From the IMG/VR virus record IMGVR_UViG_3300032321_000377, positions 1 to 61,325 of that record: a stretch of DNA of 61,325 nucleotides; one strand, 5' to 3'. This DNA is from a virus (taxonomy: Duplodnaviria; Caudoviricetes). Position 1 is the first letter of the stretch. The number at the start of each line of letters is the position of its first letter. The translations under genes were made by a program, and so were the position numbers. Below, in pieces: positions 10,238 through 50,902 of this stretch. The notes beneath the pieces were generated by a model, which was not told the DNA's origin, ran no database searches, and saw only the letters and a list, made by a program, of their open reading frames with translations.

Positions 10238-10253
10238 TTTTTAGGAGTAATAA

Positions 10254-10856: not shown

Positions 10857-10872
10857 TTGGAGAAAAATATTA

Positions 10873-11082: not shown

Positions 11083-11091
11083 GGAGTAGGC

Positions 11092-11848: not shown

Positions 11849-12072
11849 ATAAACATGTGCAGCTAGGAACATGGGTAACTTTGGCAGTTACCATGACTTT
11901 ATGTATTGTTGTTATGGGTATGGTAGGGGCTATGTTAGTAGGTATGTTTGATGACAATGTTAACAACGATAAAATATTTGAGGCTATTACCCCAGCATTT
12001 CAAACCATTATTGGCGGATTTATTGGGTTAATTACAGGTATTAAATTAGGGCATGATGATAATGACGAATGA
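11845..12072 (+). CDS. Two-TM membrane protein (holin/antiholin candidate)
   Basis: Two hydrophobic segments; directly before the endolysin. Confidence 0.65.
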   Translation: MNKHVQLGTWVTLAVTMTLCIVVMGMVGAMLVGMFDDNVNNDKIFEAITPAFQTIIGGFIGLITGIKLGHDDNDE

Positions 12073-12649
12073 GCAATTACAAGCTCTTGGCATTGATGAA
12101 AAATGGTTTGAGCCACTAAACGAAACTTTTGCTAAGTACGATATTTCCACCCCTGTTCGTCAAGCATACTTTATTGGGCAGTGCGCTCATGAGTCTAATA
12201 ATTTTAAAATTCTTCAAGAAAACTTAAACTACAGCGCAGAAGGTCTAATGAAGACCTGGCCTAGCCGCTTTCCCACCAAAGAGATTGCTGACCAATATGC
12301 TCGTCAGCCAGCTAAAATAGCTGGTAAAGTTTACAACGGGCGCTTAGGTAATACTAGCGAAGAAGAGGCTTCTAAGTACTTAGGCAGAGGTCTTATCCAG
12401 TTAACTGGTAAGGAGAACTATGAACACTGCGGATCTAGTTTGGGTGTGGATCTTGTTGGGAATCCTGATTGGCTACTTGATCCTAAATATGCGGCTCTAA
12501 GTGCTGGCTGGTTTTGGAATAAGAAAGGGCTAAATGCCTTGGCAGATGCCCAAGATCTAGATACAATGACTAAACGTATTAATGGCGGGTTAATCGGACT
12601 GGATGACCGCAAAGCTAAAATTGCAAAAGCACTGTCTGTACTAGGGTAA
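12062..12649 (+). CDS. Endolysin, glycoside hydrolase family 19
   Basis: QCAHES, GRGLIQLTGKENY, SAGWFW and INGG..GL.DR motifs. Confidence 0.92.
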   Translation: MTNEQLQALGIDEKWFEPLNETFAKYDISTPVRQAYFIGQCAHESNNFKILQENLNYSAEGLMKTWPSRFPTKEIADQYARQPAKIAGKVYNGRLGNTSEEEASKYLGRGLIQLTGKENYEHCGSSLGVDLVGNPDWLLDPKYAALSAGWFWNKKGLNALADAQDLDTMTKRINGGLIGLDDRKAKIAKALSVLG

Positions 12650-12655
12650 ACCCGT

Positions 12656-19747: not shown

Positions 19748-22700
19748 ATGCCACGGGTAGAAATTCCGGGAGTAGGGATTGTTAATTTCCCTGACAATAT
19801 GCCGCAAGATGAGATCATGACTCGTGCAGAGTCAATGCAAGCTCAGGCAAAAACACCACTTCTTAATCCTAAAGATTTACCTGCTTCTGAATTACTTAAA
19901 GGTGGTTTTTCTCGTGGTTTAGAAGGTCTTAAAGGTACAGCCTTTGATTTAATCCCTGCATTGGGTGGTTCTTTATTAGGTAAAGATGCTTACGCCAAAG
20001 AGCAACTACAAGAATATCAACAACGTATGGCTGCAGTTGAAGCAGAAAGTCCAACTGCATACAAGTCTTATAAAGATATTGGTGGGATTGGTGATGCTAT
20101 TGGATTTGGTGCAGAAACTCTTGGCGAGCTTGGTCCTGACCTTTTGTCATTTATTGGTGGCGCCGGACTTGGCGCACAGATAGGAAAACGAGTTGCTAAA
20201 AAAGGTGTAGAAGAAGCACTTCAAGCAGGTGCCGCTAAACAAGGCGCTAAACTAGGCTCTACAATCGGCTTAACTAGTGCATCAATGGCAACTAACGTGC
20301 CAGACGTATTCCAAAGTATCTACCAAGACACAGGCACACTACAACCTGGTATTGCTTTAACTATTGGTCCAATCGTAGGTATGCTAGATACGTACTTACC
20401 TGGTCGTATTCTTAAGCAATTAGGTCCTGAAGGCAAACAAATTCTTGCTGGTCAACTTTTAGATAAGTCCACGGTTGTACCTACCACTTGGAAAAAAGCC
20501 TTTACAGGGGAAATTCTTAAAACTACTGGCGGCGAAGCGCTAACTGAAGGCACGCAACAAGCCTTGCAAATAGCTGCGTCCCAAATTGCTGGTGATAAAA
20601 AAGGTTTTTTTGACCCGCAAAATATTGATAGCATTATTACCGCTTCACTAAAAGGCGCTATCGGCGGTGGCACACTTGGTGCTCCTACAGCCGCAATAGA
20701 AGCAGGCCGTAAAAAACAAGAATTTGCACAACTTCAAGTATTGCAGCAGCAAGAAGCTGAAAAGCAACGTGAGGAACAAGAACAAAAAGATTTACAAGAA
20801 TTGACTCGTCAGCAAACAGCTACTGGTGATTTGTTTGGTCAAGAAGTACCACAAGGTCCTGGCATCCCATCTACCACCGTAGCTGAAAGAGAACGTGCTG
20901 CTGACCCTGTTGGCGCAGCTATTAGCGATTTGGCTACGCAATATGCAAGCACTAGATCCGATATAGAACGTGGGGCTATAGAAGAAAAATTAAAACGTAT
21001 TAGCGATTCTTTACCTGCTCAATCGCACGAGAAGCAGATGCTTTTAGATTTGCTTGGGCCTTTACTGGGATACACTCCTGGCAAAGCCTACCCTACACAG
21101 TCTATTGATACAGCGCCGATTTCAGTTGACCAGCAAGGTGTTGCTAGAACTGCACAACAAGCTGAGGCAGAACGTACTACACCACAACAAGTTGAAGGAT
21201 ACCAAGCTGACTTGTTCCCACAAGAACTAGATTTAGCAGAAGCTCAAGCTCAAGCACAGGGTTTACCAGCAAACGTAGACCAAGCACTAGCTGGTCCTGC
21301 GCAAGCGCCTGCGCAATTTAAAACAATTTTGGATGCTCCTTCTTTACAAGGAACTGGTCTCAAACCACAATCTGGTTTCTTTAAAAAACTTCTTAACAAA
21401 GATTTAACAAACCCAGAAGACCAAGCGGCAGTACGTAATATACTTGTACAAGTTAAACAAAATCCAAACATAGCCGATTCGACTAAACAAGCCATCGAGT
21501 CTCTTGCTATGCAAGCCTTTGCTACTTTAGGTCAGCAAGCTAACATGGTAGGCCCTCGTGGCGGCATAAGAAGGGATGTAAATTATGGAAGAGTTCAGCC
21601 TAGACCTGCCGATCAAGCAAGTGGAGCAGGCGTTTCAGTTCCTGTGCAGCAAGTACCAGACGTTACCGAAGGAGCTGGAGCACTTGAGCGACCAGGATTG
21701 GTACCAGCTGGAGACATTACTAACGATGTTGGAAACAGAGAAGAAGTACAGCCAAATACATTAGCCGAGGAACAAAATGCGATACAACCTGAATTGGCTG
21801 CGCCGCAAGTGGAAGGAGAGCCTGCAACTACGGAAGGCCCTGCTGCTGGAATTACTGAAGGAGTTGGTGAAGTGGCTCCTGTGGCACTCGCTGAGCCTGC
21901 TGTACAAGCTGCCCCTGCCGAAGAAGTGGCGCCAGAGGTTGTTCCTGAAGTTGCTAAAGAGAAGCTAAGCAGAGCACAAAAAAGGTTAATAGAAGAGAAT
22001 TTACTAGAACTTAAAGCGGAAAGACGGTTAACAAAAGACGCTGAACTTATAAAAATACTTGACGAAGAGATTGCTAATACTGAAGCAGACCTTAAAGCGA
22101 GTAAATACCAAGTTGGTGAAGGCGCAGGTAACTTCACAGGTGACGTAACTAATCTAGCAAAAGACTTACGTGCCGCCCTAAATAAAATGGGGTTAAACAA
22201 AGTAGCTTTAAACTTAGAGAAAGTACTGTTTGATAAAGACGGAAACCCTGTTCAAGGTTTTTACAATAATCGACTAATCCAAGTTGCTTTAAATGCAACT
22301 AAGCTAGGGTATACCCTTGACCATGAAGCACTCCACGCTATGCGTGAACTTGGTTTCTTCTCCCCTAGCGATTGGGGGATGTTAAGTAATATGGCTAGAA
22401 ACACTTGGATGAAGCAGTATGGTATTGCAGCTAAATATCCAGAGCTAACCAAAGAAGAACAAATCGAAGAAGCTGTTGCCGAAGCCTTTGCAAACTTCCA
22501 ACAACAAGCGCCACAAACCCAGTCATTGATGACGAAAGTAATAAACTCCTTGCGTAGGCTCGGTAATTTCCTACGGGGTTATGGTTTCCAAGTTGCTGAG
22601 GATATTCTTGGTAAAGCTGCTAGTGGGCAGTTAGCTAAAGATCGTGCCGAAGTTATTGCTCGTTTTGATGACTATTTAGATACGCACCCTAGCTCCGAAG

Positions 22701-40083: not shown

Positions 40084-40515
40084 TTAACCTCTAATAAGTT
40101 GTGCTACTTTTTCTTCCAAGTATGCTACTACTGCTTGGGAATTGAGGAACATAGTTTTAGCTTGGGTATAGTCTCGCTCTAGCACGTCGTACTTACGCTT
40201 CCACATGTGTGTCCACTCAGTAAGTTCATTAATATCTTTCTCAAGGGTCTGTACATACTTAAGTGTTATCTTGGAGTCGATTGTATTATCTTTGTTAGTA
40301 GGTTTACTAACGGGTATCGTACTCGTCTGAGTCTGCGAGATGTATACACCATCTTCTTCCTTAGCGATCTTCTTCTCTTTGTGTAGTCTGTTCAATGCGT
40401 TATACACATTACCAGCTTTAGCTTTTGTAATAGCAATAAGTTCCTTCGGCTTCTTACCACCTTGGGTATTTAATACATTAAGAATTTGTTGCACTACTGA
40501 TATTTTCTTTTTCAT
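40084..40515 (-). CDS. Winged-HTH protein with C-terminal coiled coil
   Basis: ILNVL...PKELI......VYNALNRL...I...G.Y wHTH pattern. Confidence 0.7.
   Translation of the reverse strand: MKKKISVVQQILNVLNTQGGKKPKELIAITKAKAGNVYNALNRLHKEKKIAKEEDGVYISQTQTSTIPVSKPTNKDNTIDSKITLKYVQTLEKDINELTEWTHMWKRKYDVLERDYTQAKTMFLNSQAVVAYLEEKVAQLIRG
40293..40312. promoter_or_regulatory. Palindrome GTTAGTA-N4-TACTAAC copy 1 (intragenic)
   Basis: tGTTAGTAggttTACTAACg. Confidence 0.75.
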
Positions 40516-40813
40516 AATTACTTTCTCCTGTTGTTAATAAAGAGGGTAGGTACTTAACGTCACCTTCCCGTACTACTAGGGCTACTCCACCAGCATCGAT
40601 GATCTTTTTAAGATTCATTTCTTGCAAGAGGGTTAGCTTCCCTTTCCCAGCTTTAGTTTCAATGCCGAAAAACTTACCTTCGAGGCAAACTAAAAAATCG
40701 GGTGCGCCTTGCCTACCATATCCGCCTGTAACTGGCATCACATAGTAAGCACCAAGCCCATCAAGGACTTGGCGCACAGATTTCTTGACTTTACCCTCGG
40801 GTGTAGTCGCCAC
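40478..40813 (-). CDS. VRR-NUC domain nuclease
   Basis: PE..VK, GAPDF, IETK, Q..GG motifs. Confidence 0.88.
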   Translation of the reverse strand: MATTPEGKVKKSVRQVLDGLGAYYVMPVTGGYGRQGAPDFLVCLEGKFFGIETKAGKGKLTLLQEMNLKKIIDAGGVALVVREGDVKYLPSLLTTGESNYEKENISSATNS

Positions 40814-41005
40814 TTATTTCTCCAAGAATGGAATTTTTGTGGTCTGTTTTGTGTGCGCATAGTAATCTAATTGCACCTTCGCCGAGTTAATCATCTTACC
40901 AGCAATGTTTGCTAACTCACTCGCATCAGTATGTTTGAGCGCACCGCCCCGCAAGTCAGCAAATACTTGTGATAGTTGATCTCTTAGTTCACTTACATTT
41001 TTCAT
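40814..41005 (-). CDS. Hypothetical protein
   Basis: ANIAGKMINSAKVQ; ATGA coupling. Confidence 0.7.
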   Translation of the reverse strand: MKNVSELRDQLSQVFADLRGGALKHTDASELANIAGKMINSAKVQLDYYAHTKQTTKIPFLEK

Positions 41006-41631
41006 TTCTCTAACTCCCTTTTAATCATTAGTTGTAAACGTTTTGCTTCGAGTAACTCCTTTGGTACTTCATTGGCTAGTAGTCTATACCCGCTACTTTT
41101 AGCCAACAGATGTGCAACATAACCATCTGTAATTTCTGCTACTAACTTCTTACTTGATTTGCGTATTACGGCTCTACGCATTTCAATAAACCTTTCAGGA
41201 TCTTTAGCCATCTGCCTAGCCTTCAATGCCTTACGTGCTTCCCCCACCTTCTCAGGGTTTTCTGCATACCTACGATCTCTAGCAATCTTTGCTACTTGCC
41301 GTATATGTTCTTTGTTATTAGCCCTGTATCGCTGAGTTAATTCTTTGAACCGCTCAGGATTTTTTTTCTGCCAATCCCTAGTAAGTTCTTTTACTCGATC
41401 TTTATTATTCTCAGCCCACTTCTTAGTAAGTTCTTTACACTTCTCCTTGTTAGCTTCACGATACGCACGTTGGTACGCACGTTTCTCCTCTAAGGTCTTT
41501 GTCGGTTTCTTAGGTTTGGGTGGGTGTGCTTGTGCATACTTCTCCCTAGCCTTAGCCCTTAAAGCCTCTGCATTTTTCTCACGATATGCTTTTTTACAAA
41601 CACGTCGCTTCTCCATATCTTTATATGGCAT
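41002..41631 (-). CDS. Basic helical-repeat protein
   Basis: Repeated (Y/W)xxxN(K/P)E units. Confidence 0.65.
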   Translation of the reverse strand: MPYKDMEKRRVCKKAYREKNAEALRAKAREKYAQAHPPKPKKPTKTLEEKRAYQRAYREANKEKCKELTKKWAENNKDRVKELTRDWQKKNPERFKELTQRYRANNKEHIRQVAKIARDRRYAENPEKVGEARKALKARQMAKDPERFIEMRRAVIRKSSKKLVAEITDGYVAHLLAKSSGYRLLANEVPKELLEAKRLQLMIKRELEK

Positions 41632-42028
41632 TGCTTTCTCCGTTAAAAACCCAATATACATTTCTACTTATTCTTCTACCTACACCCTTGACTTCTTCGT
41701 TTACTTTCGTATGGTCAAGTAGCATTAGTACAGAGATTTTATCTTGCACCCATTTTGGCAAGTCGTCAAGTGTTTCGTAATAATTTTTTAACTCGGGGTT
41801 AAAGGCATCCAACATCTCATAACATGTTGTTTGGACAGTATTATCCTCGTTAATTTCTATCCTATAAATGGGTTCTTCTTTGACCTTTTCAACATACATC
41901 AACAGCATTTCTTCGGGCGCACTAATGTTATGTTTAGTCCTATCCATATACACCCACGATAAATCGGTAAAGAAAGCTATATATAACTCCCTCTCCCGTT
42001 TCGCTTGCGGACTCATAAATCCACGCAT
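41621..42028 (-). CDS. Hypothetical protein; C-terminus resembles that of 42030..43025
   Basis: DLP.....ISVL.LL......GVG.R...YWV versus ELP.....IAVL.IL......NVG.K...FWV. Confidence 0.7.
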   Translation of the reverse strand: MRGFMSPQAKRERELYIAFFTDLSWVYMDRTKHNISAPEEMLLMYVEKVKEEPIYRIEINEDNTVQTTCYEMLDAFNPELKNYYETLDDLPKWVQDKISVLMLLDHTKVNEEVKGVGRRISRNVYWVFNGESNAI

Positions 42029-42029
42029 A

Positions 42030-43025
42030 TTAACCTCTCTCTACCCAAAAGGTAGAATCGTCTAACTTCATGCCAACATTGGCTACATACCCATCATTCT
42101 CTAGGATGTTTAATACCGCAATCTGCCCAGCTATGTCTTGTGGTAATTCGTTTACTAGATAACTTACTGCCTGTGCGTTCGTTGTATTCATCTTGACGTC
42201 CCACCGAATATCACGCACATCGAATACCTCTTGCAAATCGGCATAGGTAGAATCCCCTACTTGACGGAATCGTACAAATAATGCTGATACTTGACGCTTC
42301 TCTTGTTCCTCGTAGTCTTCGACAAGCTGGTCTACCTTATTGGCTAACTCCCTAAACTCGGGGGTAGTGAACTCCACACCTTGCTTCTTCAAGAACCGCA
42401 CCTCTTGTAGGATAGACATATGAGAAGTACCTACTTCTCTAGCCCCGTTATACATCTTGCCCTTGACTTGTTCCAATACCTTACTGACGTTGTGGTGGAT
42501 TGGTTCGTAGAAAGCCTGAGCTAACTCACGGGTGGTATACGGCACAAGATATTTAGATGCGTTCTTAACCGCCTTACCCATATCCTTAGTCATAATCATA
42601 TGGTGCTGGTCTCGGTGCGTAGCATACTTAGCGTTACTAATCTTACGGCTATACACTGCGTAGCTATTCTCCCCGCTCTTGACTGTGTTATCACCCCAGC
42701 CTACCCGACCTAGATCGAACGGAAAGTCATCCATATACGCAAACAGTTCATCACATACACGCATACTCCGAGTAGTCTGATACACCCCGTTCTCGTCATT
42801 CACGCTAACATTTCTAAGCACAAAAGTATTTGGGTAAAACTTTATTTTCGGCATCGCCTTTTGTACCCCCGTTGCGAACTCCAACAACTCCTTCTCCACA
42901 GGTATCCCCGCAAAGAAGTGCTGATGCCCCAAACTTTTAGCGTCTTCAACAATACCTTCTAACTTATCTTTATGCCCCACATCGGACATTACCTTACTGA
43001 TTCTTGCTAATTTTGGCATTTCCAT
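42030..43025 (-). CDS. Hypothetical early protein
   Basis: 331-aa ORF with SD AGGAG. Confidence 0.8.
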   Translation of the reverse strand: MEMPKLARISKVMSDVGHKDKLEGIVEDAKSLGHQHFFAGIPVEKELLEFATGVQKAMPKIKFYPNTFVLRNVSVNDENGVYQTTRSMRVCDELFAYMDDFPFDLGRVGWGDNTVKSGENSYAVYSRKISNAKYATHRDQHHMIMTKDMGKAVKNASKYLVPYTTRELAQAFYEPIHHNVSKVLEQVKGKMYNGAREVGTSHMSILQEVRFLKKQGVEFTTPEFRELANKVDQLVEDYEEQEKRQVSALFVRFRQVGDSTYADLQEVFDVRDIRWDVKMNTTNAQAVSYLVNELPQDIAGQIAVLNILENDGYVANVGMKLDDSTFWVERG

Positions 43026-43038
43026 TCTCCTGTTAATT

Positions 43039-43058
43039 TGTTAGTAACATTACTACCG
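43039..43058. promoter_or_regulatory. Palindrome copy 2 (1 mismatch)
   Basis: tGTTAGTAacatTACTAcC. Confidence 0.7.
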
Positions 43059-43952
43059 CATATCTACTGCTAACATACCGCCTGTCTTACGGATGGTCGC
43101 TCTGAACTTCGCCCATGAATCTTTGTTAGGGCTGAACCTACCATTCTCAATCGCATCTGCGCTGTACGCAAGCAAACCAGCTAGTGCCATACGCTTATCG
43201 TGCTCGGGGTTATCTAGGATTTCACGCACTAAGTTCTTATCAATGTAGCGTTCCCAATACCAATAGCTTGACTGACTATTTGTCAAGTCCATAGAGTATT
43301 GATTTTTAGCATCGCTTAAACTATCACCCATCACAGGCAACACGACTTGCATCCACTCCCACATCTCTTTCATCTTGGGCTTGTATTGTTGATCTACTGT
43401 CTTGTCAATGCGTCTTGTCTGCATTGGTACGAGATCACCCACACGAACGAACCCATCACCTTCGGCTTTAAACACTAGCTTGTTGTCCTGTGTCATCTTG
43501 AATGTCTTGGCTTGCCAGTTCATATCACCTTTGAACTTCGGTAAGTAATAGTCCTTGCCCTGATACTTGACAAAGTGTTTACCCGTAGTGGTGTACCAAT
43601 CGAACCGCATACCCATCGGCAAGAACGAATCCAAGAATGTATATCGAGATACTGAAATACCATCATTCATATGGCTACGCACAGTGATATAGTCACCATC
43701 ATCCTTACGCTCCCATACAATCGGCGCAGTTGTTTCTAGGATGTCCTGATGATTACCAAGTCCACTCCATGCCCAATGCCCATCACATAAGATGTATTTT
43801 GTGTCTGATACTTTGTGTACACGATTCCACCAGTACCTACGCTGGGCTAATGGTCTGATGTCCTCGTTCGCTCTCGCTCCACGAATAGGTACGATCTCGT
43901 TGTATGCTTTTGCTACTTGGTCAAAACTACTTAGTCTGTAATATCCGCTCAT
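43053..43952 (-). CDS. Hypothetical early protein
   Basis: Long ORF with SD GGAG. Confidence 0.8.
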   Translation of the reverse strand: MSGYYRLSSFDQVAKAYNEIVPIRGARANEDIRPLAQRRYWWNRVHKVSDTKYILCDGHWAWSGLGNHQDILETTAPIVWERKDDGDYITVRSHMNDGISVSRYTFLDSFLPMGMRFDWYTTTGKHFVKYQGKDYYLPKFKGDMNWQAKTFKMTQDNKLVFKAEGDGFVRVGDLVPMQTRRIDKTVDQQYKPKMKEMWEWMQVVLPVMGDSLSDAKNQYSMDLTNSQSSYWYWERYIDKNLVREILDNPEHDKRMALAGLLAYSADAIENGRFSPNKDSWAKFRATIRKTGGMLAVDMR

Positions 43953-43953
43953 T

Positions 43954-44115
43954 TTAATTCTCCACAAGTTGATTGATTAGGTTAGTGATACTGTTCCATG
44001 TTTTATCTGCTTCTTTGTTTAGTTTTTCAGTCATATGTTCCTCTACTGTCAGTTCTGTATAGTATTCAATCAATGAACGCAAGTCAGAACCTATTGCTTT
44101 TTTATCTATTGTCAT
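43954..44115 (-). CDS. Hypothetical protein
   Basis: Starts MTIDKKAIG, with SD AGGAG. Confidence 0.55.
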   Translation of the reverse strand: MTIDKKAIGSDLRSLIEYYTELTVEEHMTEKLNKEADKTWNSITNLINQLVEN

Positions 44116-44117
44116 CT

Positions 44118-44234
44118 TCACTCTCCTATAAAAAGTTCTATTACTTTGTTGGCAACATAAACCAATGAAGCCACTAGTCCCATAGCTACTGCACATACCA
44201 CCAGCCCTACTAGATAATTAGTGATCTCGTCCAT
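44118..44234 (-). CDS. Small single-TM protein (38 aa)
   Basis: MDEITNYLVGLVVCAVAMGLVASLVYVANK...; SD AGGAG. Confidence 0.55.
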   Translation of the reverse strand: MDEITNYLVGLVVCAVAMGLVASLVYVANKVIELFIGE

Positions 44235-44243
44235 ATCAATCTC

Positions 44244-44606
44244 CTAACACTTGTTCAATAAATCTTTTATGGTTTCTGAATAACTAGGTAGATAGGTCAT
44301 TCCCCAATCCATACGCAACCGCTCCCTAGCTTTATCAAGTGAATCCATAGCCTTGTCGTCTATACCTATTTGATACCGCTTCTTAGTTAAAGTTCCGTCA
44401 GGGTTCTTACGATAGTCGTGCATACTACCCAATGCCCTTAAACCTAACTTGCTTACTGTTGATTCAGTTATGCTCGGATAAGTCTTTTGCAATTCCTTTG
44501 CTATCTTTCCATAAGTAAGTCCCTTCAGCTTAAGTTCTTTTACGATTGGTTCACACGCTTCACGCATTAACCTTTCTTCTTTCCATAGTTTTGCCCAATC
44601 TGTCAT
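44244..44606 (-). CDS. HTH-containing protein
   Basis: GLTYGKIAKEL......TESTVSK. Confidence 0.6.
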   Translation of the reverse strand: MTDWAKLWKEERLMREACEPIVKELKLKGLTYGKIAKELQKTYPSITESTVSKLGLRALGSMHDYRKNPDGTLTKKRYQIGIDDKAMDSLDKARERLRMDWGMTYLPSYSETIKDLLNKC

Positions 44607-44607
44607 A

Positions 44608-45786
44608 TCAGTCCTCTATATGTATAGTTGTTCCTACGTCTGCACATGCCGATGGATTGCCCTGAATACACCACAACACAGGCACACTCCATTGACCCCA
44701 TGACCCACCCAAGTAGCCATCTGTTAGTACTATTACTAACTCGGGCTTGATACCATGCTCATTCATATACATAGGCACACACTCAACATCCGTACCACCA
44801 CCGCCCATAGGCTTAGTTGATCTCACAATGTCATCACGAGTTTGTTCGTCATAGACTTCATGACCACACACCCCTGTGTCCCAATACACGATACGAACCT
44901 TGCTCGGCTTAACTTGGTCGCAGATACCCTTGATCTCGGTTAAGAACTTGGTTAATTCGTTTTGGCCGATTGACCCCGAGGTATCTATCGCTATAAGAAG
45001 TTCGCCCATTGTTTCGCTTATCGAACTCGGCATAAGAATATCCATGCCAATGAATCTTCGATTCGGCTTTTTCCACGTTGAGTAATCCTTACCAGCGCAA
45101 GTGGTGGACACATAGTCACGCAGTAACTCTCGCCAATCTTTCTTGGTTTGTAGTAACTCGTTAATGTCTCTGTTGCCACCCGACCCAGTTTTACCAGCCA
45201 GCATTGAACCTTGACGCACTGCTTCGTCAATTTCCTTAGCCAGTTGCTCGGCTTCTTCGGCGGACAGTTGTTGCGCCCCTTCCCAATCGTGCTCGTCAAA
45301 AGAAGATGCCAGTGACCCCCCTTCTCCATCTTCGTCTTCATCATCTTCTAGTAAGTCAAAGACTTGTTTAGCGTTCATGTCCCGATACTTAATATCTAAG
45401 CACCCACCATCAGGCATCTTGATAAACCCCTTCAAGTCCATGTCCTCTAACTTTAAGTTGATAACGTAATCACACGCACGATTAGCACGACCAGCGTTCA
45501 GCTTATGCAAGTCGCCCCATGTAGTCAGATGCCTATACATCTTGTGGTAGCACTCATGCAACATCAAGAACCTAAACTCGGCATCAGTCAAACTATCCAC
45601 AAACTCCCTACCATATAACTCGTCACGACCATTGGTACACGCCGTGGGTAGACCATCTATGATCTTCTTGCTACCGATCATGAGCACACCAGCGAGGGCT
45701 ACGAACTCGTCACGACCTAGTATGTCTGTCGTTGCTTTCCATAACCTCTGCTCGGCGGTCAATGTTTTACCTATTGCTAGACTCAT
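44608..45786 (-). CDS. Metallopeptidase-like + VWA domain protein (DUF2201-like)
   Basis: HECYH, N.A.D..IN, IDTSGS (MIDAS), GGGTD and LTDG. Confidence 0.88.
   Translation of the reverse strand: MSLAIGKTLTAEQRLWKATTDILGRDEFVALAGVLMIGSKKIIDGLPTACTNGRDELYGREFVDSLTDAEFRFLMLHECYHKMYRHLTTWGDLHKLNAGRANRACDYVINLKLEDMDLKGFIKMPDGGCLDIKYRDMNAKQVFDLLEDDEDEDGEGGSLASSFDEHDWEGAQQLSAEEAEQLAKEIDEAVRQGSMLAGKTGSGGNRDINELLQTKKDWRELLRDYVSTTCAGKDYSTWKKPNRRFIGMDILMPSSISETMGELLIAIDTSGSIGQNELTKFLTEIKGICDQVKPSKVRIVYWDTGVCGHEVYDEQTRDDIVRSTKPMGGGGTDVECVPMYMNEHGIKPELVIVLTDGYLGGSWGQWSVPVLWCIQGNPSACADVGTTIHIED
44722..44741. promoter_or_regulatory. Palindrome copy 3 (intragenic)
   Basis: tGTTAGTActatTACTAACt; encodes LVIVLT on the minus strand. 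Confidence 0.75.
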
Positions 45787-45796
45787 ATCATTCTCC

Positions 45797-45816
45797 TGTT
45801 AGTAATGTTACTAACC
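45797..45816. promoter_or_regulatory. Palindrome copy 4
   Basis: tGTTAGTAatgtTACTAACc; abuts the SD of the VWA gene. Confidence 0.85.
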
Positions 45817-45818
45817 GA

Positions 45819-46943
45819 TTACTTCTTATCGGCAGTGAACATAAAGTTGTTAGCCATGCACCATGCGGTGAACTTCTTATTAGTCATGACCAGCCCTTGT
45901 CTCTGATACTTCGGGTTACGCACTTGCATAGCGAACAATGACTGCGCTTCCATATCTAATCTACCGAGGTAGTCCATCCATGGATCAATCCATTCCTTAT
46001 TGATAGTTGCCAATGCTCGGTACACCACCATCACTACTGCTGATGACGTGCTAGGAACTTTAGCGTTCATAGGGTCTGTCTTAATATCTTCGACACGAGG
46101 TAAGTCATCCACCAAGCGGATATACGCACCGAGGTCTGAGCCAGCCCGATCACCGATAGTGCCGATGAGGTTAGACTTCAATGAGTTGTCGCTTAGTTTG
46201 TCCTTAGCCCATAGCCAATGACTAGCAAGTTCTAATGAGCGAGGGGTTACAAAAGCGGGTCGCTGAGTCTGAGGATGATAGATATAGGGGTTTCCACCTA
46301 CTTCGTCGTCAGGTTTCTCGATGTCCTCGAATGACTGGAATAACTGCTCGCCATTCTCCTTGACCCATAGAATCATAGACGGGTGAATACCAGCGTTAAA
46401 TGCGAACCCTTCTATCCACTCGTTAGCGGTTGGTTTCTTCATACGGATAGTTGTTATACGATTGCGGTGATGAGGCATAAGTAAGTCGCCCACTCCCTCT
46501 GTCCCGAGGTTAGTTGTCGCAAAGATTATCGAACCATCAGGTAACTTATCAGTACCAAAGGTACGCTCTAACATCACACGCATCATGCCGTTCTTGACCA
46601 TCGGATTGGCTTTACCGAACTCGTCAATCATGAGAATGATCGGTTTGCCATGATGTAAGCCCATCTCCTCGTTAGGTACAAAGCGTACAAAGTCTTGGGT
46701 ACTGTCGTCACGCAGTATTTTCGGCAACATCAAATCGCCGAGGTCTTTCGTGGTGCAGTCAAAGTAGCAAGGTACATGGTTGGGTAACTTCTGTGCCAAC
46801 ATCTTGAGGATTGAGGATTTCCCTGTTCCCATATGACCTTGAACCAAGGTCGTGATTCTATCCCCTGTTGCCATGATGGATTCCACGCACTCGTCAAGTG
46901 ACTGTGCATAGATGCGGTCTGCGGTTTGGATTGCTTTTGCCAT
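45819..46943 (-). CDS. AAA+ ATPase (MoxR-like)
   Basis: GHMGTGKS Walker A, MIDE Walker B, ATTN sensor, TPRS. Confidence 0.88.
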   Translation of the reverse strand: MAKAIQTADRIYAQSLDECVESIMATGDRITTLVQGHMGTGKSSILKMLAQKLPNHVPCYFDCTTKDLGDLMLPKILRDDSTQDFVRFVPNEEMGLHHGKPIILMIDEFGKANPMVKNGMMRVMLERTFGTDKLPDGSIIFATTNLGTEGVGDLLMPHHRNRITTIRMKKPTANEWIEGFAFNAGIHPSMILWVKENGEQLFQSFEDIEKPDDEVGGNPYIYHPQTQRPAFVTPRSLELASHWLWAKDKLSDNSLKSNLIGTIGDRAGSDLGAYIRLVDDLPRVEDIKTDPMNAKVPSTSSAVVMVVYRALATINKEWIDPWMDYLGRLDMEAQSLFAMQVRNPKYQRQGLVMTNKKFTAWCMANNFMFTADKK

Positions 46944-46957
46944 TTTAATTTCCTTTT

Positions 46958-46977
46958 TGTTAGTAAAGTTACTACGG
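46958..46977. promoter_or_regulatory. Palindrome copy 5 (2 mismatches)
   Basis: tGTTAGTAaagtTACTAcg; just upstream of the ATPase SD. Confidence 0.7.
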
Positions 46978-47060
46978 GTTAGTGGTACTAGAGATACCTT
47001 TTCTTAAAACTCTAATCGTTACAGCGCCAGATACAGGGTGGAATACCACCCCATAACGTC

Positions 47061-47960
47061 TTACCACGAAAGTTCTTTGATTAAAGAATCTACCTTGCTC
47101 TTAACATCTAAGCGTAGGTAGTCGTCCTCACGCAGTGCATCGGGGGTAATCCCTAGCATTACGGATTCGAGTTTGTGCTTGGCGGTGCGCATTTTTGGGT
47201 CGCCCGTCACGTTGAACTTCTCCAATAGGTCTACCATATCCATGACATTACTCACGAGGGTATCCCTGAATATCTGCTTCTTATCACCTGATAACTTCTC
47301 TGACATACGGGTTAGTGCTTCGTGGGTACGCTCCCATACATCGGCATATGCTGACTCTAAGTTGCTCTGATAGTAGTTGGCATAGCTTTCCTTTAGGATT
47401 GCTTCGGCTTCCTGTCCTACATTGACTCGCCAATCACCCACTTCGGGTACGGGTGCAAACTTGACCGAGAACTTAAACTTATCCCTCACCATTTCAACGG
47501 GTGGGTAGTCATCTTGATTGAATAGTGTTCCTAGCTTCATCTGTGACTGCAATACCAGCTTGTCATAAGAACTTAAGAAGGTCTCTACTAATTGGTCGAA
47601 CTCCTGCTCCATGGCAGTTATCTCCCGTTGGTAGTCAAAGAACATGCTCGTTGTTAGTAGTCGCAAACCTGAGTCACTCCATGGCATAGTCGCATGGTAG
47701 TGGTAGGTTCGGCTATTGCCAGCGAACTTCTGAATCGCATCGAATACGGGTTCGTCTGCGAACAATCGCTTACTGTAATTACCCGCCCTTGTGGTGGTTT
47801 GTTTTTGGGTGTCAATCTCTTGGCTTACCCCTTTGTCGAACTTGCGACCTGTCCATACGCTAATGTTTAACTCGACCAGCATCGCTGAACTACTGATACT
47901 TGGGATTGATACTGTTGGTGCGTTGTTAGTAATGTTACTAACTTGGTTACTCGTTTCCAT
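47061..47960 (-). CDS. DUF3150-like early protein
   Basis: LVELNISVWTGRK.D, T.PW...G.RLL and DYP motifs; adjacent to the AAA/VWA pair. Confidence 0.65.
   Translation of the reverse strand: METSNQVSNITNNAPTVSIPSISSSAMLVELNISVWTGRKFDKGVSQEIDTQKQTTTRAGNYSKRLFADEPVFDAIQKFAGNSRTYHYHATMPWSDSGLRLLTTSMFFDYQREITAMEQEFDQLVETFLSSYDKLVLQSQMKLGTLFNQDDYPPVEMVRDKFKFSVKFAPVPEVGDWRVNVGQEAEAILKESYANYYQSNLESAYADVWERTHEALTRMSEKLSGDKKQIFRDTLVSNVMDMVDLLEKFNVTGDPKMRTAKHKLESVMLGITPDALREDDYLRLDVKSKVDSLIKELSW
47924..47943. promoter_or_regulatory. Palindrome copy 6 (intragenic, 5' end)
   Basis: tGTTAGTAatgtTACTAACt. Confidence 0.85.
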
Positions 47961-48017
47961 TTGGATTTCCTTTTATTAAGATACTACTGTTTAACATCTT
48001 TTACCACTATACTATAT

Positions 48018-48046
48018 AGTTTACCACTTTATGCTTCTACTGTCCA
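48018..48046 (-). promoter_or_regulatory. Sigma70-like promoter
   Basis: Minus strand TGGACA-17 bp-TAAACT, with extended -10 TG. Confidence 0.55.
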
Positions 48047-48189
48047 GTTTTCAAGCCACCGATAATCCTTCTAGGTAGGTATAAGGTGATGCGTTCCTCG
48101 TCCATACTCTGCAAGGTAACCTCGGTTTCCGTCCAAGCCAATACGACATAGGTTCTTTTCCCTATGCGTTTAATATCGCCCGTTCTCAT
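48037..48189 (-). CDS. Hypothetical protein (50 aa)
   Basis: MRTGDIKRIGKRTYVVLAW...; ATGA coupling. Confidence 0.5.
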   Translation of the reverse strand: MRTGDIKRIGKRTYVVLAWTETEVTLQSMDEERITLYLPRRIIGGLKTGQ

Positions 48190-48425
48190 AATGACACCCA
48201 CTTTTCAAAGCCTACGGCAAAGGTATACAGAATAAATAGGGTAAATACCCATATCACTATCCAGCCAAGATATTCCTTGGTTCTATCCCACTCGCTCTCG
48301 CATCGCCATAAGGCGCAAGCGTAATCGGCATCTTTAAATGCCTCACTTACTGTGCGGTGAGTTCGGCTACTGTGGATAAACTTCGCTGGGTCATCGCCCA
48401 CGTATTGCTTTTTAGGTGTTCTCAT
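48186..48425 (-). CDS. Small membrane protein
   Basis: RTVSEAFKDADYA followed by a C-terminal TM helix. Confidence 0.7.
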   Translation of the reverse strand: MRTPKKQYVGDDPAKFIHSSRTHRTVSEAFKDADYACALWRCESEWDRTKEYLGWIVIWVFTLFILYTFAVGFEKWVSL

Positions 48426-48606
48426 TTGTCATTACCTCTTTCAGTTTAGTTAACTCCGCATCGAACTTATCACGACCTAACTTGTTGCGGATTTCCAAGA
48501 TTCGGTCAATCTTTCGCTTGTTGCCTAAAAATCTAGCCATGCTATTGCCACCAGCCACGACTGATAAAACTACTTCCATCAGGAAGATTCTGTCCTCTCC
48601 GTTCAT
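48412..48606 (-). CDS. Hypothetical protein
   Basis: Tiled ORF. Confidence 0.6.
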   Translation of the reverse strand: MNGEDRIFLMEVVLSVVAGGNSMARFLGNKRKIDRILEIRNKLGRDKFDAELTKLKEVMTNENT

Positions 48607-48788
48607 TCTGACCTTCCTAGTTCCATATACTGTTCTACTAAAATCAGCTTGTCCCTCATGCTTGTTAGGCAGTCGGTTCGGTTATCGTACCCAAGGCTCG
48701 TATAGCTACATCCGTTCAACAAATCACAGATGTCAAAGTAGACTTCTTGTACGCTTGTTAATGCTTGGTTATCTGATATAGCCATCAC
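48603..48788 (-). CDS. Hypothetical protein
   Basis: Tiled ORF. Confidence 0.6.
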   Translation of the reverse strand: MMAISDNQALTSVQEVYFDICDLLNGCSYTSLGYDNRTDCLTSMRDKLILVEQYMELGRSE

Positions 48789-49021
48789 TCGTTTATCCTT
48801 TTCGGGTTAAGTTGTTTAAGGTCTGTTGCGTTCGTCACGGATACATAGTTGGACTTGTGCATCGGCACGACTGTGAACTTGCGAGATTTAGCGATTTCGT
48901 CTCCACAAGGTAAGCAGAAGGCATAACCCAAGTGCATACGTTCTAGTGGGTAAGACTCATCACATATTTTGCAGTGCGGTTGATATTGCCTAAGTTGATC
49001 TGTACGGCGAACTTTGTTCAT
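48785..49021 (-). CDS. Zn-finger protein (CKIC...CLPC)
   Basis: C..C......R...G...C..C. SD AGGAG; first gene after the promoter. Confidence 0.75.
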   Translation of the reverse strand: MNKVRRTDQLRQYQPHCKICDESYPLERMHLGYAFCLPCGDEIAKSRKFTVVPMHKSNYVSVTNATDLKQLNPKRINE

Positions 49022-49053
49022 TCAGTGTATCTCCTGTTAAGTTGTTTATCCTG

Positions 49054-49073
49054 TGTTAGTAACATTACTAACA
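49054..49073. promoter_or_regulatory. Palindrome copy 7
   Basis: TGTTAGTAacatTACTAACA, between the promoter and the first gene. Confidence 0.85.
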
Positions 49074-49118
49074 GCAGAACCCTGTGGACGAAATTGAATA
49101 TTTCCCGACCATATATAA

Positions 49119-49147
49119 ATTATAACCTATATAACTATCAAAGTCAA
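49119..49147 (-). promoter_or_regulatory. Near-consensus sigma70 early promoter
   Basis: Minus strand TTGACT-17 bp-TATAAT. Confidence 0.8.
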
Positions 49148-49200
49148 GTAAATGATAGTAAAGAGTATTTGAACCTATTGAACTTTATTTGTAGTTGTTG

Positions 49201-49409
49201 TAAGTTATTGATTATATTGTTTTGTTCGGAATGTTCGTATTGTTCTGCCATTTTTAGGGTACTTGACTTTAAAAAAGAAGAGAGAGGAATCTCTGCATTT
49301 TCGTTTTTGTTTTTCGTTTGCCACCCTTCCTCGAAAATCGGGGTTCAAAGCGAACATTACGAACAATACTTATAAATCAAGGACTTAGCAAAGAACAATA
49401 CCCCGAACA
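49201..49409. other. Candidate replication origin: inverted IHF-consensus sites and 9-bp-phased TGTTC/GAACA repeats
   Basis: WATCAANNNNTTR at 49201-49213 (-) and 49375-49387 (+). TGTTC at 49223/49232/49241; GAACA at 49352/49361/49393/49405. Confidence 0.5.
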
Positions 49410-49461
49410 TTACCAACTAAAAAAACTACAATAGCAGGGTTAACCCTAAGGTTAGCCAGCA

Positions 49462-49581
49462 ACCCTGTGTGGCTCGCTTCTTCTAGTCACTGGCATCACT
49501 GTTAGTAACATTACTAACAACGCTTAACTTCGCATCACGCAACGACCCTGTGCGACTCGCTACTCCAAGTCACTGGCATCA
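49462..49581. repeat. Imperfect 37-bp direct repeat (49462-49498 and 49545-49581)
   Basis: ACCCTGTG..ctcgct......AGTCACTGGCATCA occurs twice, 83 bp apart. Confidence 0.8.
49500..49519. promoter_or_regulatory. Palindrome copy 8
   Basis: TGTTAGTAacatTACTAACA. Confidence 0.85.
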
Positions 49582-49594
49582 TAGGGTAAACCCT

Positions 49595-49614
49595 TGTTAG
49601 TAAAAATACTAACG
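49595..49614. promoter_or_regulatory. Palindrome copy 9
   Basis: tGTTAGTAaaaaTACTAACg. Confidence 0.8.
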
Positions 49615-49659
49615 GGATGGGAAAAGATATTAAGCCGAAAGTAGTAAAAATTAGGGCGC

Positions 49660-49682
49660 AAAAAAGCCCGCCGAAGCGGGCT
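49660..49682 (-). terminator. Intrinsic terminator with UUCG tetraloop
   Basis: Minus strand AGCCCGC-TTCG-GCGGGCT-TTTTT. Confidence 0.9.
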
Positions 49683-49696
49683 AAGATATTAAGGGC

Positions 49697-49727
49697 AAAA
49701 AAAAACCCAGCTTGTCAGGCTGGGTTT
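49697..49727 (-). terminator. Intrinsic terminator
   Basis: Minus strand AAACCCAGC..GCTGGG followed by a 9-T run, just after the stop of 49734..50300. Confidence 0.85.
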
Positions 49728-49733
49728 AGGGTA

Positions 49734-50300
49734 CTACGCTCCGATGTCGCTTTCAATCAACTTCTTAATGCTTGCTTTATGCTCAGGGATATTGAATGAA
49801 GCCTTTTCCAACTTACCTAAGCGATCAAGGGCAGACATTAAATCCTTGAAATACATTCCTTCTGCACTTGTTTTCTCAGTAGATTTACCTTCGATAGCGA
49901 TACGCTCACGCTCTACCAAAGCCCTACGATAATAAGCGAACTCACTACCAATTTGTTGTTGCAAAGCCCGCTTAGTTGCCTTTTCCAAATCGCCTAGAGT
50001 TTTTGATTCCTTAGCTAGTAAAGCCTGAGCATCAAGATCAAAGCCCAAAACAATAGCCCGCTTAATTGAATCACACAATGGAGCCTTTTCCTTGTTGGAT
50101 AAATCAAGATCAAAGGATTTAAGCCCGCTTGTTTCCATCAAATCAACAGTTTGCTTTTTGGTTTTGCTAGCATCTAAGCTCTTTTTGGTGCCCTTTGTGA
50201 TCAGGGTAGCGATCTCAGTAGAGATTACCTGAGCCTTTACCAAAGCGCCTTTAGCAATTGCCATAGGGTTATTGAGAGCGGATGTGTTTACTTGTGTCAT
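49734..50300 (-). CDS. Stand-alone first early gene, unknown function
   Basis: SD AAGGA before ATG 50300; has its own promoter and a double terminator. Confidence 0.8.
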   Translation of the reverse strand: MTQVNTSALNNPMAIAKGALVKAQVISTEIATLITKGTKKSLDASKTKKQTVDLMETSGLKSFDLDLSNKEKAPLCDSIKRAIVLGFDLDAQALLAKESKTLGDLEKATKRALQQQIGSEFAYYRRALVERERIAIEGKSTEKTSAEGMYFKDLMSALDRLGKLEKASFNIPEHKASIKKLIESDIGA

Positions 50301-50478
50301 TTTTATTTCCTTTAAAAAGTGAATGGATAGATAGCGCAATACTCAACTCGGGCATAACTCAGGGCGCAAATATCCTGAGATCGAAGCCGTCCCTTTTTAC
50401 CCCTTGCGCTTAGCAGACAATTCAAGCCAGCGCCTAGATCAGGGTTCAAAGTAATCTGATTAAGTAATCATTGAAATC

Positions 50479-50507
50479 AGTATAAAGAATATCCTATAAG
50501 ATGTCAA
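50479..50507 (-). promoter_or_regulatory. Near-consensus sigma70 promoter
   Basis: Minus strand TTGACA-17 bp-TATACT. Confidence 0.85.
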
Positions 50508-50518
50508 TGTTTACTAGC

Positions 50519-50538
50519 TGTTAGTAATATTACTAACA
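50519..50538. promoter_or_regulatory. Palindrome copy 10 (perfect 20-bp palindrome)
   Basis: TGTTAGTAATATTACTAACA, 11 bp upstream of the -35 box. Confidence 0.85.
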
Positions 50539-50755
50539 AAATGATACCCAGCCAAAGCAACACCCCCATAGCCCGTTTTTGTCAGATGGGACTCCGTTGG
50601 CTACTGGTATGCTATTTCGCACGCTACATGATTAAAATTCCTGTTTCGGCCCCAAGTATAAAAAAGTACCTACCTAGGAACACCCCCCGTCACTAAATAA
50701 AAAGCCCACGTAAAAAAATTTTTGTGTAAAATTTTAGGAATATCAAGGAGGTACA

Positions 50756-50902
50756 ATGAGTTCTTGGCTAATTATTGTTACGGGGTTGATCTATGCCTAT
50801 ATTGCGATTGAGCAAGGATTCAAAGGTAACCTTGCTATGTGTATCTGCTACGCTTGTTATGCTGGCGCTAATGTGGGTCTGTATATGATGGCTACCAAAT
50901 GA
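50756..50902 (+). CDS. Small membrane protein (48 aa)
   Basis: SD AAGGAGG; MSSWLIIVTGLIYAYIAIEQ...ANVGLYMMATK*. Confidence 0.7.
   Translation: MSSWLIIVTGLIYAYIAIEQGFKGNLAMCICYACYAGANVGLYMMATK

Follow-up and report, generated by a model that had tools for sequence, protein, structure and literature searches.

Palindrome array at the head of the early arm

The window analysed here (W) is the whole of a virus record, IMG/VR IMGVR_UViG_3300032321_000377 (61,325 bp, rated 97% complete), and its dominant repeat is the 18-bp palindrome GTTAGTA-N4-TACTAAC, which very probably forms a cognate pair, as putative sites and their reader, with the protein of the first early gene, according to sequence comparisons with related viral loci. 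The genes of W diverge from about 50.5 kb. The plus-strand arm carries the terminase, the portal, virion proteins and a 1924-aa PLxRFG/LPD39 protein, and the minus-strand arm spans 50.4 to 25.8 kb, with small early genes followed by DUF3150, AAA/MoxR-like ATPase and DUF2201 metallopeptidase/VWA-like genes and then by replication genes (methyltransferase, DNA polymerase, exonuclease, helicase and primase-helicase, in this order). Only two sequences in the 61 kb matched a sigma-70 promoter at 11 of 12 positions (P1 and P2), and both are located at the head of the early arm. P1 precedes the first early gene and two terminator-like hairpins, behind which a 700-bp non-coding region contains two palindromes, each with a GATGCCAGTGACT element, as well as AATGTTCG-type repeats and P2. 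Coordinates of these features are listed in Table 1.

A search for the exact palindrome retrieved eight copies in W and none in 100 dinucleotide-preserving shuffles of the genome. When up to two mismatches were allowed, 11 matches were found against 0.35 expected, the additional ones being copy 9 (one mismatch), copy 6 (two mismatches) and an outlier at 14090. All ten copies of Table 1 fell within 40.3-50.5 kb, in the minus-strand arm, and because the window is the entire record and 97% complete, their absence from the remainder is a statement about the whole genome. A first-pass annotation of this DNA, made from the letters alone, had reported the ten copies with coordinates one base low, had considered a chance origin unlikely and had asked for a scan of the genome; the scan agreed with it, the copies being confined to one arm and not evenly distributed. 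The contexts it described also held: three copies lie inside open reading frames (ORFs) (copies 5, 8 and 10), four are located 0-19 nt before a Shine-Dalgarno (SD) sequence (copies 4, 6, 7 and 9), one stands beside a -35 box (copy 1), and the central bases occur in both orientations (ACAT in three copies and ATGT in three). Isolated half-sites were neither depleted nor enriched (14 outside the ten sites, with about 10.4 expected by chance); the special feature is only the paired form of the palindrome and not the half-site. No T run was seen behind any of the copies in W. The outlier (14090-14107, GTTATTA-CTGT-TAATAAC) is itself a perfect palindrome, each arm having undergone the same change; it lies within the late gene 12656-14833 and may be a chance occurrence at the expected frequency given above.

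Table 1. Promoters, first early gene, terminator-like hairpins, repeated elements and palindrome copies at the head of the early arm of W
Feature	Position	Strand	Match	Description
P1 promoter	50479..50507	minus	11/12	sigma-70-like, TTGACA-17-TATACT
P2 promoter	49119..49147	minus	11/12	sigma-70-like, TTGACT-17-TATAAT
First early gene	49734..50300	minus		188 aa from ATG at 50300; ORF open up to TTG at 50339
Terminator-like hairpin with T run	49703..49727	minus		intrinsic type, directly after first gene
Second terminator-like hairpin with T run	49665..49682	minus		intrinsic type
GATGCCAGTGACT element, first copy	49568..49580	minus		just past palindrome copy 2
GATGCCAGTGACT element, second copy	49485..49497	minus		just past palindrome copy 3
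Copy 1	50520..50537		exact	12-13 nt upstream of P1 -35
Copy 2	49596..49613		exact	non-coding control region; GATGCCAGTGACT element 15 nt downstream in minus-strand direction
Copy 3	49501..49518		exact	control region; second GATGCCAGTGACT element 3 nt downstream in minus-strand direction
Copy 4	49055..49072		exact	P2 leader, start 47 nt past -10; 33 nt before ATG of ORF 48785-49021
Copy 5	47925..47942		exact	codons 7-12 (VSNITN) of DUF3150 gene 47061-47960
Copy 6	46959..46976		2 mismatches, upstream arm	15 nt before ATG of AAA/MoxR-like ATPase gene 45819-46943
Copy 7	45798..45815		exact	between ATPase stop codon and SD of DUF2201/VWA-like gene 44608-45786
Copy 8	44723..44740		exact	inside DUF2201/VWA-like gene, encodes LVIVLT
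Copy 9	43040..43057		1 mismatch	overlaps TAG stop of ORF 43053-43967; 20 nt before ATG of ORF 42030-43025
Copy 10	40294..40311		exact	inside ORF 40084-40515, encodes VSKPTN

Relatives of W were collected with the ATPase, which retrieved 39 viral contigs with 46-97% identity, whose loci were compared over about 20 kb; an ATPase profile then retrieved at least 535 IMG/VR contigs, 80 of which were kept, 64 of them new (L-numbers denote these related viral loci). An exact scan of viral contigs for the motif of W gave mostly single chance matches, and the contig of L025/L130 alone had six sites. De novo counting showed that the palindrome of W is common to some relatives only and that nearly every relative has a 15-19 bp palindrome of its own in many copies. 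At least three exact copies of one palindrome were present in W and in 33 of the 39 loci, which together had 249 sites with up to two mismatches, compared with 3 for the reversed patterns, and among the 64 further loci 59 had at least four copies and 62 at least three. About 30 palindrome classes were distinguished by a crude grouping. They include GTTAGTC-N4-GACTAAC, classes with an NN centre (GGTAGTCC-NN-GGACTACC, TTCGGGCA-NN-TGCCCGAA, AGATGTAA-NN-TTACATCT and GTTATCAC-NN-GTGATAAC) and others such as GTTAGGGAATTCCCTAAC, TGTATACATATGTATACA and TGTTAGGCG-N-CGCCTAACA. Both arms of the palindrome change together between lineages.

The palindromes were also syntenic. Both junctions of the ATPase gene hold the palindrome proper to each lineage between the stop codon and the next SD, and several relatives have their own palindrome at the codon 7-12 position of DUF3150. 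L124 contains an exact copy whose offset past the ATPase gene is about that of copy 8 (not residue-aligned), and in L130 the stretch between both junction sites is free of copies. The layout common to the lineages is a G-rich element, a palindrome, P1, the first gene, one or more terminators, palindromes with GA(T/A)ACCAGT, P2, another palindrome and the following genes. In three near-complete relatives the sites were confined to 4.4-13.3 kb of genomes of 58-66 kb (8 sites in 6.7 kb of 60,188 bp, 11 in 13.3 kb of 58,245 bp, and 5 in 4.4 kb of 66,194 bp plus one outlier with two mismatches), and the reversed-pattern controls gave 0. These scans of the genome and of its relatives support the earlier proposal that selection maintains the repeat as a sequence-specific recognition site, and that it is not simply a hairpin. 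Just downstream of the ATPase gene, L134 has the palindrome-plus-SD linker in common with L133 and L136 and is identical to them as far as the ATG, where a different gene begins; gene gain and loss seems to take place at these linkers.

The proposed family is described by a gene for 160-230 aa behind the first strong promoter, followed by one or more terminators, and by at least three copies of one 15-19 bp palindrome beginning beside that gene. These features are present in W, and departures from them are L138 (neither array nor first gene), L174/L175 and Synechococcus phage MinM2. The latter, whose 65,014-bp genome is also that of Planktothrix phages Pag-Yong1 and Pra-JY27, was the only cultured relative found and is a distant one: its genome layout is the same, its DUF3150 protein is 28.7% identical, and it contains 22 copies of GGTTCAG-N-CTGAACC (control, 0), mostly just past stop codons and 8-15 nt before an SD. 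Its first-position gene is not homologous to the first-gene family, and its array is a looser analogue of the system described here.

Co-variation of the first early gene with the palindrome

The first-pass annotation had named five candidate binders (a winged helix-turn-helix (HTH) protein, an HTH protein, the first early gene product, an ejected protein and a host factor) and had suggested looking for co-variation of the motif with one phage protein. Such co-variation was found for the first early gene, whose product is the only one of the five singled out by the comparative sequence data as a putative binder. In a tblastn table over the relatives this gene was widespread but fast-evolving: its protein was 47% identical in a relative with the same motif, in which the ATPase was 83% identical, and 28% identical in a relative with a different motif, in which the ATPase was 92% identical. 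The HTH ORF 44244-44606 gave no tblastn match in any of the 39 loci, including those with the same palindrome, and was rejected as general reader. The winged HTH ORF 40084-40515, which is patchy and does not track the motif, was likewise rejected, being 50-52% identical both in L162 (same motif) and in L125 (different motif) and absent from L126/L127.

The clearest comparison was that of L145 with L152. Along most of about 19 kb these two loci share 97-98% identity, apart from two blocks at 91-92%, and every palindrome differs between them. The first gene is the sole gene in a shared position without DNA homology; the break points are its start and stop codons, and the two proteins are 23% identical over 47 aa. 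The other DNA specific to L152 amounts to about 150 bp only, and L145 has two further insertions. A similar, less clean break at the first gene was found between L148 and L150, which are 93% identical in a late-arm block and in the ATPase gene and 67-79% identical between them. In L191 and L192 the sites were exactly replaced within flanks that are 95-97% identical.

A hidden Markov model (HMM) of the first gene detected a total of 33 ORFs, distributed over W and 30 of the 39 loci, and was positive in 42 of the 64 new loci. Among the 62 loci with both gene and motif, the median identity of the first proteins was 46% for identical motifs, 29% for motifs with one difference and about 24% for three or more differences. 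When pairs with ATPases at least 95% identical were considered, the first proteins were 62-100% identical if the motif was the same (median 86, n=17) and 24-77% identical if it differed at two or more positions (median 30, n=11). In addition, L141 has two first-gene paralogues together with two site spacings or geometries. In a subgroup with proteins 65-77% identical and three motif classes, nine of the 17 class-discriminating residues fell in a single 16-residue window, KRWxQQQxGSRLNxVI (binomial p = 8e-6), which corresponds to residues ~105-120 of the protein of W (KRALQQQIGSEFAYYR). In the structural model this is the N-terminal part of a long helix, and it is our candidate recognition helix.

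Variation of the first protein was not limited to changes of motif. In L144/L145 and L133/L134 the ATPases are 100% and 99.7% identical, the palindrome is the same and the first proteins are only 66-70% identical (66% in L144 and L145, beside the ATPase with 100% identity). Judging from these sequences, the putative reader is under diversifying pressure beyond DNA specificity.

The product of the first gene of W is a basic protein of 188 aa and about 21 kDa; the median isoelectric point of the family is 9.45, with values of at least 9.0 in 24 of 26 members. An AlphaFold2 single-chain model built with 26 sequences was confident and all-alpha (predicted local distance difference test, pLDDT, 87.7; predicted template modelling score, pTM, 0.60). 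The predicted homodimer scored 0.82, compared with 0.13 for the best control, a score that expresses the confidence of the model itself and is not a demonstration of binding; at least 75% of the contacts agreed among three homodimer runs, with a partner pLDDT of at least 78. In the calibration of this tool the mark was reached by 20 of 30 solved homo-pairs and by one of 23 single chains, counts that hold only roughly because our own alignment was used. The predicted interface involves residues 23-60, 74-88 and 146-181, leaving most of the discriminating window free.

A profile search of 1.84 billion representatives retrieved 646 clusters (at 50% identity) with E <= 1e-3, 391 of them with E <= 1e-10, and among the 120 homologues listed the carrying contigs were no longer than 72 kb. 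No match to the first protein was obtained by tblastn against GenBank phages, and two divergent members of the family were not found in viral contigs. A language-model atlas offered PF25746 (0.79, labelled as often chance) and DUF3102 (0.78) as leads, and Pfam confirmed neither. The modelled reader would have a new fold and belongs to no known family.

Several observations weigh against this protein as the DNA reader of the palindrome. A DNA-binding domain could not be recognised in it: Foldseek searches of PDB and BFVD returned nothing at E <= 0.001, and no significant match to the first protein or its family came from Pfam, PHROGs, NCBIfam or a PDB sequence profile. The subgroup proteins that are 65-77% identical go with different palindromes, and in some pairs with the same motif the first proteins are only 23-35% identical. 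L124 has two palindrome classes and one first gene, possibly in a chimeric assembly. The arrays of L174/L175 have in first position a gene that is only weakly family-like (hhalign E 0.002, probability 14%), and 22 of the 64 new loci had no HMM match, many of them being cut upstream. Finally, since the compared loci measure about 20 kb, a binder encoded elsewhere is formally possible. With respect to L124, its hybrid array (6878-13278) begins with three sites of the ATACGTAACGTTACGTAT type followed downstream by sites of the W type, and its first protein belongs to the AGATGTAA subfamily; this locus represents a recombinant that arose naturally and is in transition, or else a chimeric assembly.

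Proposed reading of the palindrome and control of the early arm

The first-pass annotation had attributed the array to a dimeric protein binding double-stranded DNA (dsDNA) and not to an RNA hairpin, and a two-fold symmetric reader does fit the data. Both arms change together, a homodimer is predicted, and in the even-length classes the central bases showed no strand bias (AC 23, GT 16). Several classes have a palindrome that is continuous across its centre. Imperfect copies gave no strand signal and no rescue by G-U wobble, with 17 G-U pairs on the sense strand, 13 on the antisense strand and 58 other mismatches in the outer seven pairs, and 6, 5 and 9, respectively, in a hand count of the inner positions. 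Besides, in W, L130 and L136 the -35 of P1 lies downstream of copy 1, which is therefore not transcribed by P1. We consider it probable that the palindrome is read as dsDNA by a dimer, with an RNA-hairpin reader as a rival that is weighed below. Two findings run counter to duplex reading: the odd-length classes had a sense-strand bias in their central bases (C 47 vs G 15, A 13 vs T 2), and 274 of the 556 non-redundant sites preceded an SD-led start codon at a median distance of 19 nt, a position that an element acting on RNA or on translation would be expected to take. The remaining sites were deep inside ORFs (83) or near no start codon (199).

Within the site-bearing spans, 73 strong sense-strand promoters were identified. 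A palindrome was present within 100 nt downstream of 46 of these 73, and within 100 nt upstream of 8 of 69; in 28 of the 73 the palindrome started 40-59 nt past the -10. At many junctions an SD followed 0-20 nt behind the palindrome, leaving no room for a promoter between them, and no -10-like element was found at a fixed distance behind the sites. This geometry suits a block of the elongating host polymerase better than an activator. Class I activator phasing was rejected for copy 1, whose spacings from P1 (13-58 nt among lineages) fit no single helical phase in a hand check. The same variable distance also counts against the reading favoured here, as does the absence of any site overlapping the -35 or -10 of P1 or P2, in which the array is unlike classical operators; a position 40-59 nt past the -10 would suit a nut-type leader RNA site too, and the preference for repression over activation has the geometry and the evolutionary pattern as its only grounds.

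The sequence of events that we propose is the following. After DNA entry, the host sigma-70 RNA polymerase would start at P1 and P2, and the P1 transcript would comprise the first gene alone, because two terminators follow it. Its product would form homodimers, each subunit of which would read one arm of the 18-bp palindrome on dsDNA through residues ~105-120. Dimers would be bound upstream of P1, within the control region and in the P2 leader (at 47 nt), and then, along the following 9 kb, at gene boundaries or inside them. They would most likely serve as roadblocks or operators that turn early-arm transcription into a short pulse, a Cro-like shut-off spread over many sites in the manner of stoperators. 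Acting in trans, the dimers would keep this arm silent in a sibling genome arriving later, which would explain why the protein and all the sites switch specificity jointly between near-identical phages. The geometry of the sites, the promoter/terminator cassette of the first gene and this immunity-like switching together favour early shut-off or a roadblock, also on sibling genomes. As a whole, the statement that the first-gene protein is a dsDNA reader controlling transcription of the early arm has, on these sequence data, about an even chance of being correct, and a net effect of repression or roadblock falls somewhat short of that.

An RNA-level alternative would have the first-gene protein bind hairpins in early transcripts, for nut/boxB-like antitermination, translational repression or the guidance of RNA processing. 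The leader placement of the sites behind 28 of the 73 promoters, their frequent position before SD-led start codons, the site just inside the DUF3150 coding region (codons 7-12) in several lineages, the first site of L152 in the leader of the first gene and the central-base bias of the odd-length classes would all suit it, and the order of first gene and terminators resembles that of lambda N. We nevertheless regard it as unlikely, because copy 1 precedes the -35 of P1, many sites lie deep in ORFs or near no start codon, G-U pairs on the sense strand are not in excess among imperfect copies, and the loop bases vary freely in both orientations. A palindrome running through the centre is needless for a hairpin, whose stability was as low as -0.9 kcal/mol (to -11.2 kcal/mol) depending on the lineage; processive antitermination needs one or two sites and not 8-22, and past P2 a single, weak sense-strand terminator-like hairpin was found (48586..48573). 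A positive factor acting on DNA, whereby a dimer or an extruded hairpin marks phage-specific promoters such as the private ones of T7 type or the hairpin promoters of N4, appears quite improbable. Palindromes do stand directly upstream of many genes, with an SD spacing that suits a start at or just past the palindrome; the code is lineage-private, as in pairs of RNA polymerase and promoter, only two sigma-70-like promoters are visible for an arm of 25 kb, and in MinM2 22 sites precede most early genes. However, no phage RNA polymerase was found among the scanned ORFs and DxDGD was absent from all frames (with no separate search for T7-type motifs), the sites lack a -10-like element at a fixed distance, and their symmetry would imply firing in both directions. 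Moreover, the site in codons 7-12 of DUF3150 cannot serve that gene, the sites end at 40.3 kb although the arm reaches 25.8 kb, and they are located downstream, not upstream, of the sigma-70 promoters.

A role of the DNA sites outside transcription, in replication, condensation or partition (ParB/KorB-like), as an aid to DNA entry or as recombination linkers between cassettes, seems improbable to us. Roughly one site per gene, at no fixed position with respect to promoters and start codons, would be in keeping with it, as would the iteron-like repeats and GA(T/A)ACCAGT beside the control-region copies, and the change of gene content at the site-plus-SD junction of L134 and L133 recalls the PeSL cassettes as described in PMC4122927. 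On the other side, the first protein has no ParB, SMC, recombinase or nuclease signature, a protein made after entry could not act on the first DNA unless it were packaged, an identity of 18 bp is short for homologous exchange, and both the sites just past strong promoters and the cassette of promoter, first gene and terminator point to transcription. It is very improbable that the repeats have no dedicated reader, being self-spreading or structural elements (weak terminators, or elements like REP) homogenised by gene conversion and tied to the first gene by linkage. Conversion between copies could account for the exact replacement of sites in flanks that are 95-98% identical, and most sites lie behind stop codons, where terminator-like hairpins often occur. 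Against this, no T run follows the sites, the stems are identical within a genome, also in coding regions, while the loops vary, and inspection of the sequence revealed no transposase-like or HUH gene, no dedicated search having been made. The first gene as the sole non-homologous gene in a shared position between L145 and L152, the clustering of class-discriminating residues in one helix of its protein and the two paralogues that accompany two site geometries also argue for a reader.

Other elements of the region were recorded as follows. GATGCCAGTGACT occurs exactly twice, each time followed by AGCGAG..CACAGGGT, and three matches were found against 0.03 expected when one mismatch was allowed. 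GA(T/A)ACCAGT is kept behind the control-region palindromes in relatives with other palindromes, so that its own reader should be conserved, whether of host or phage origin. Between the first gene and P2 (49220-49440) there are direct and inverted repeats, (T)AATGTTCG / TATTGTTCG, with an exact 8-mer of the AATGTTCG type three times, which is not significant alone; AATGTTC repeats of a similar type occur in the same region of L157, L159, L191 and L192. These repeats could be a replication origin or a second set of operators. Just outside the first palindrome, between both arms, many lineages have G-rich elements (50559-50567 and 50679-50687 on the minus strand of W), GGGGGTGTT in W and GGGGTGGGGT-like in relatives, which could be a packaging site, an origin or a genome end. 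No Rfam match was obtained for 48800-50700 at E <= 1, and megablast of 40-51 kb against GenBank phages gave no match. For 42900-50600, 20 DNA sequencing runs and no RNA run were listed.

As to neighbouring genes, the first one downstream of P2 is ORF 48785-49021 (minus strand). Its 78-aa product contains CxxC-x17-CxxC, has no Pfam match and is 40-76% identical to counterparts in most relatives; as a guess, it may be a zinc finger that modulates the host RNA polymerase. The late arm opens with ORF 50756-50902 (plus strand), a hydrophobic 48-aa product with a strong SD, which may be a holin-like membrane protein. The 1924-aa virion protein (19748-25522, plus strand) has an LPD39 domain and a PLxRFG/DarB-like C-terminal part and shares about 25% identity with proteins from Klebsiella phage LASTA, Serratia phage Parlo, Pseudomonas phage Skulduggery and Sinorhizobium phage PBC5. 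Pfam gave LPD39 only for this protein. Its residues 251-594 weakly match positions 352-655 of the 3406 of phrog_2206 (E 1.8e-6), in the N-terminal part of this N4 virion RNA polymerase profile, positions that we take not to be part of the polymerase. No integrase, ParAB, protelomerase or lysogeny module was present among about 40 scanned ORFs, many small ORFs being outside the scan, and a prophage/host search with the ATPase found no relative among 185,579 species genomes.

Comparison with known systems and significance

The stoperator-like silencing array suggested in the first-pass annotation, by analogy with mycobacteriophage L5, was supported in part, and the analysis gave no evidence for its other suggestion, a loading track that coats, protects or pulls in the first-injected DNA. 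As described in PMC6550527, the stoperators of Cluster A mycobacteriophages are asymmetric, mostly in one orientation with respect to transcription and genome-wide, and belong to temperate phages with an integrase or parABS; their reader (L5 gp71 type) is described as a monomeric two-domain HTH immunity repressor (PMC9283540). The likeness to W and its relatives lies in the many short phage-specific sites in transcribed regions, mostly in tiny intergenic gaps, in a motif and a protein that diverge together, and in the similar size of the protein, as far as the same account describes them (PMC6550527). By analogy, the proposed action would also be alike, namely a block of the elongating host RNA polymerase and immunity between relatives. 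In contrast, the array described here consists of palindromes of 15-19 bp that are restricted to the early arm and have no orientation bias in the even-length classes. The putative reader is a predicted homodimer without HTH match or known fold, and its gene comes first in the early arm of a genome that showed no lysogeny gene among the scanned ORFs. Thus, the multi-copy intergenic site and the co-divergence were found and the analogy of layout is fair, whereas the asymmetric oriented site and the monomeric HTH repressor were not.

Cro of the lambdoid phages is a first early product that reads two-fold symmetric operators of 17-18 bp as a dimer and lowers early transcription; it is an HTH protein of 66 aa with six promoter-overlapping operators and CI as partner, and its gene-operator cassette is swapped between near-identical phages. 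The first gene described here is similar in its position in the early operon, in the predicted dimer and in the exchange of gene and sites between near-identical genomes, but its product has 188 aa and matches neither the HTH nor the Cro family, the 8-22 sites are found chiefly at the junctions between genes, and there was no sign of a partner repressor. The sites nearest to P1 and P2 in W (Table 1) do not overlap the promoters as Cro operators do. In the temperate Streptomyces phage phiC31, the repressor c binds 17-bp inverted repeats, many copies of which are conserved and intergenic in the early region; the phiC31 repressor differs from the putative reader in size and domains. PF25746, the lead that pointed to phiC31, was absent from the matches of the first of the 26 family members in Pfam at E <= 1 and was not among the 25 of 52 families listed, so that homology with the phiC31 repressor is not supported.

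The nut/boxB sites of lambda N and the hairpin promoters of N4 are strand- and loop-specific and number 1-3 per genome, and N is a disordered arginine-rich peptide. Both systems share with the array a hairpin-forming, phage-specific repeat near the starts of early transcripts, an early protein followed by terminators, and a specificity that co-varies with a phage protein. They differ in that 8-22 sites are present here, in that the reader is a predicted folded protein of 188 aa, with no boxA conserved by eye across W, L130 and L127, and in that no virion RNA polymerase like that of N4 was found. KorB of plasmid RK2, a ParB-family CTPase clamp, silences at a distance as one dimeric regulator through about a dozen OB palindromes at varied distances from promoters; no ParB domain was detected in the 26 members of the first-gene family with Pfam and NCBIfam. 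In T4-like phages, repeated small regulatory motifs known as PeSL cassettes flank variable early ORFs at points of gene gain and loss (PMC4122927, PMC2839356). PeSLs are composite terminators/promoters for the host machinery and are not known to have a dedicated, co-varying reader or a lineage-private palindrome, in which they are unlike the array of W.

No paper on a family of reader plus palindrome was found in the searchable library that we consulted. We conclude that this system, a distributed operator array with a co-evolving regulator and a reader predicted to have a new fold, is real, widespread and undescribed, and it is not a quirk of a single genome, considering the at least 535 IMG/VR contigs with the linked ATPase and the 646 clusters of the reader family. 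Near-identical genomes with different codes are natural experiments in which a regulator and a dozen targets have switched specificity together, and how such a joint change comes about is an open question for immunity systems. The family provides about 30 candidate orthogonal pairs of protein and operator, together with a mapped candidate recognition helix; given that the promoters are sigma-70-like, a reporter test in E. coli is possible, and the cultured cyanophage MinM2 offers an analogous array of 22 sites. It is conceivable, albeit doubtful, that the palindromes are a private address code of virulent phages, in which about 30 distinct pairs exist, a dimer of new fold controls only genomes with its own palindrome, sibling phages are transcriptionally isolated or excluded, and the set of sites is rewritten in concert, possibly by active, reader-guided conversion instead of ordinary recombination. 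If true, such a code would be a new kind of phage-against-phage incompatibility system.

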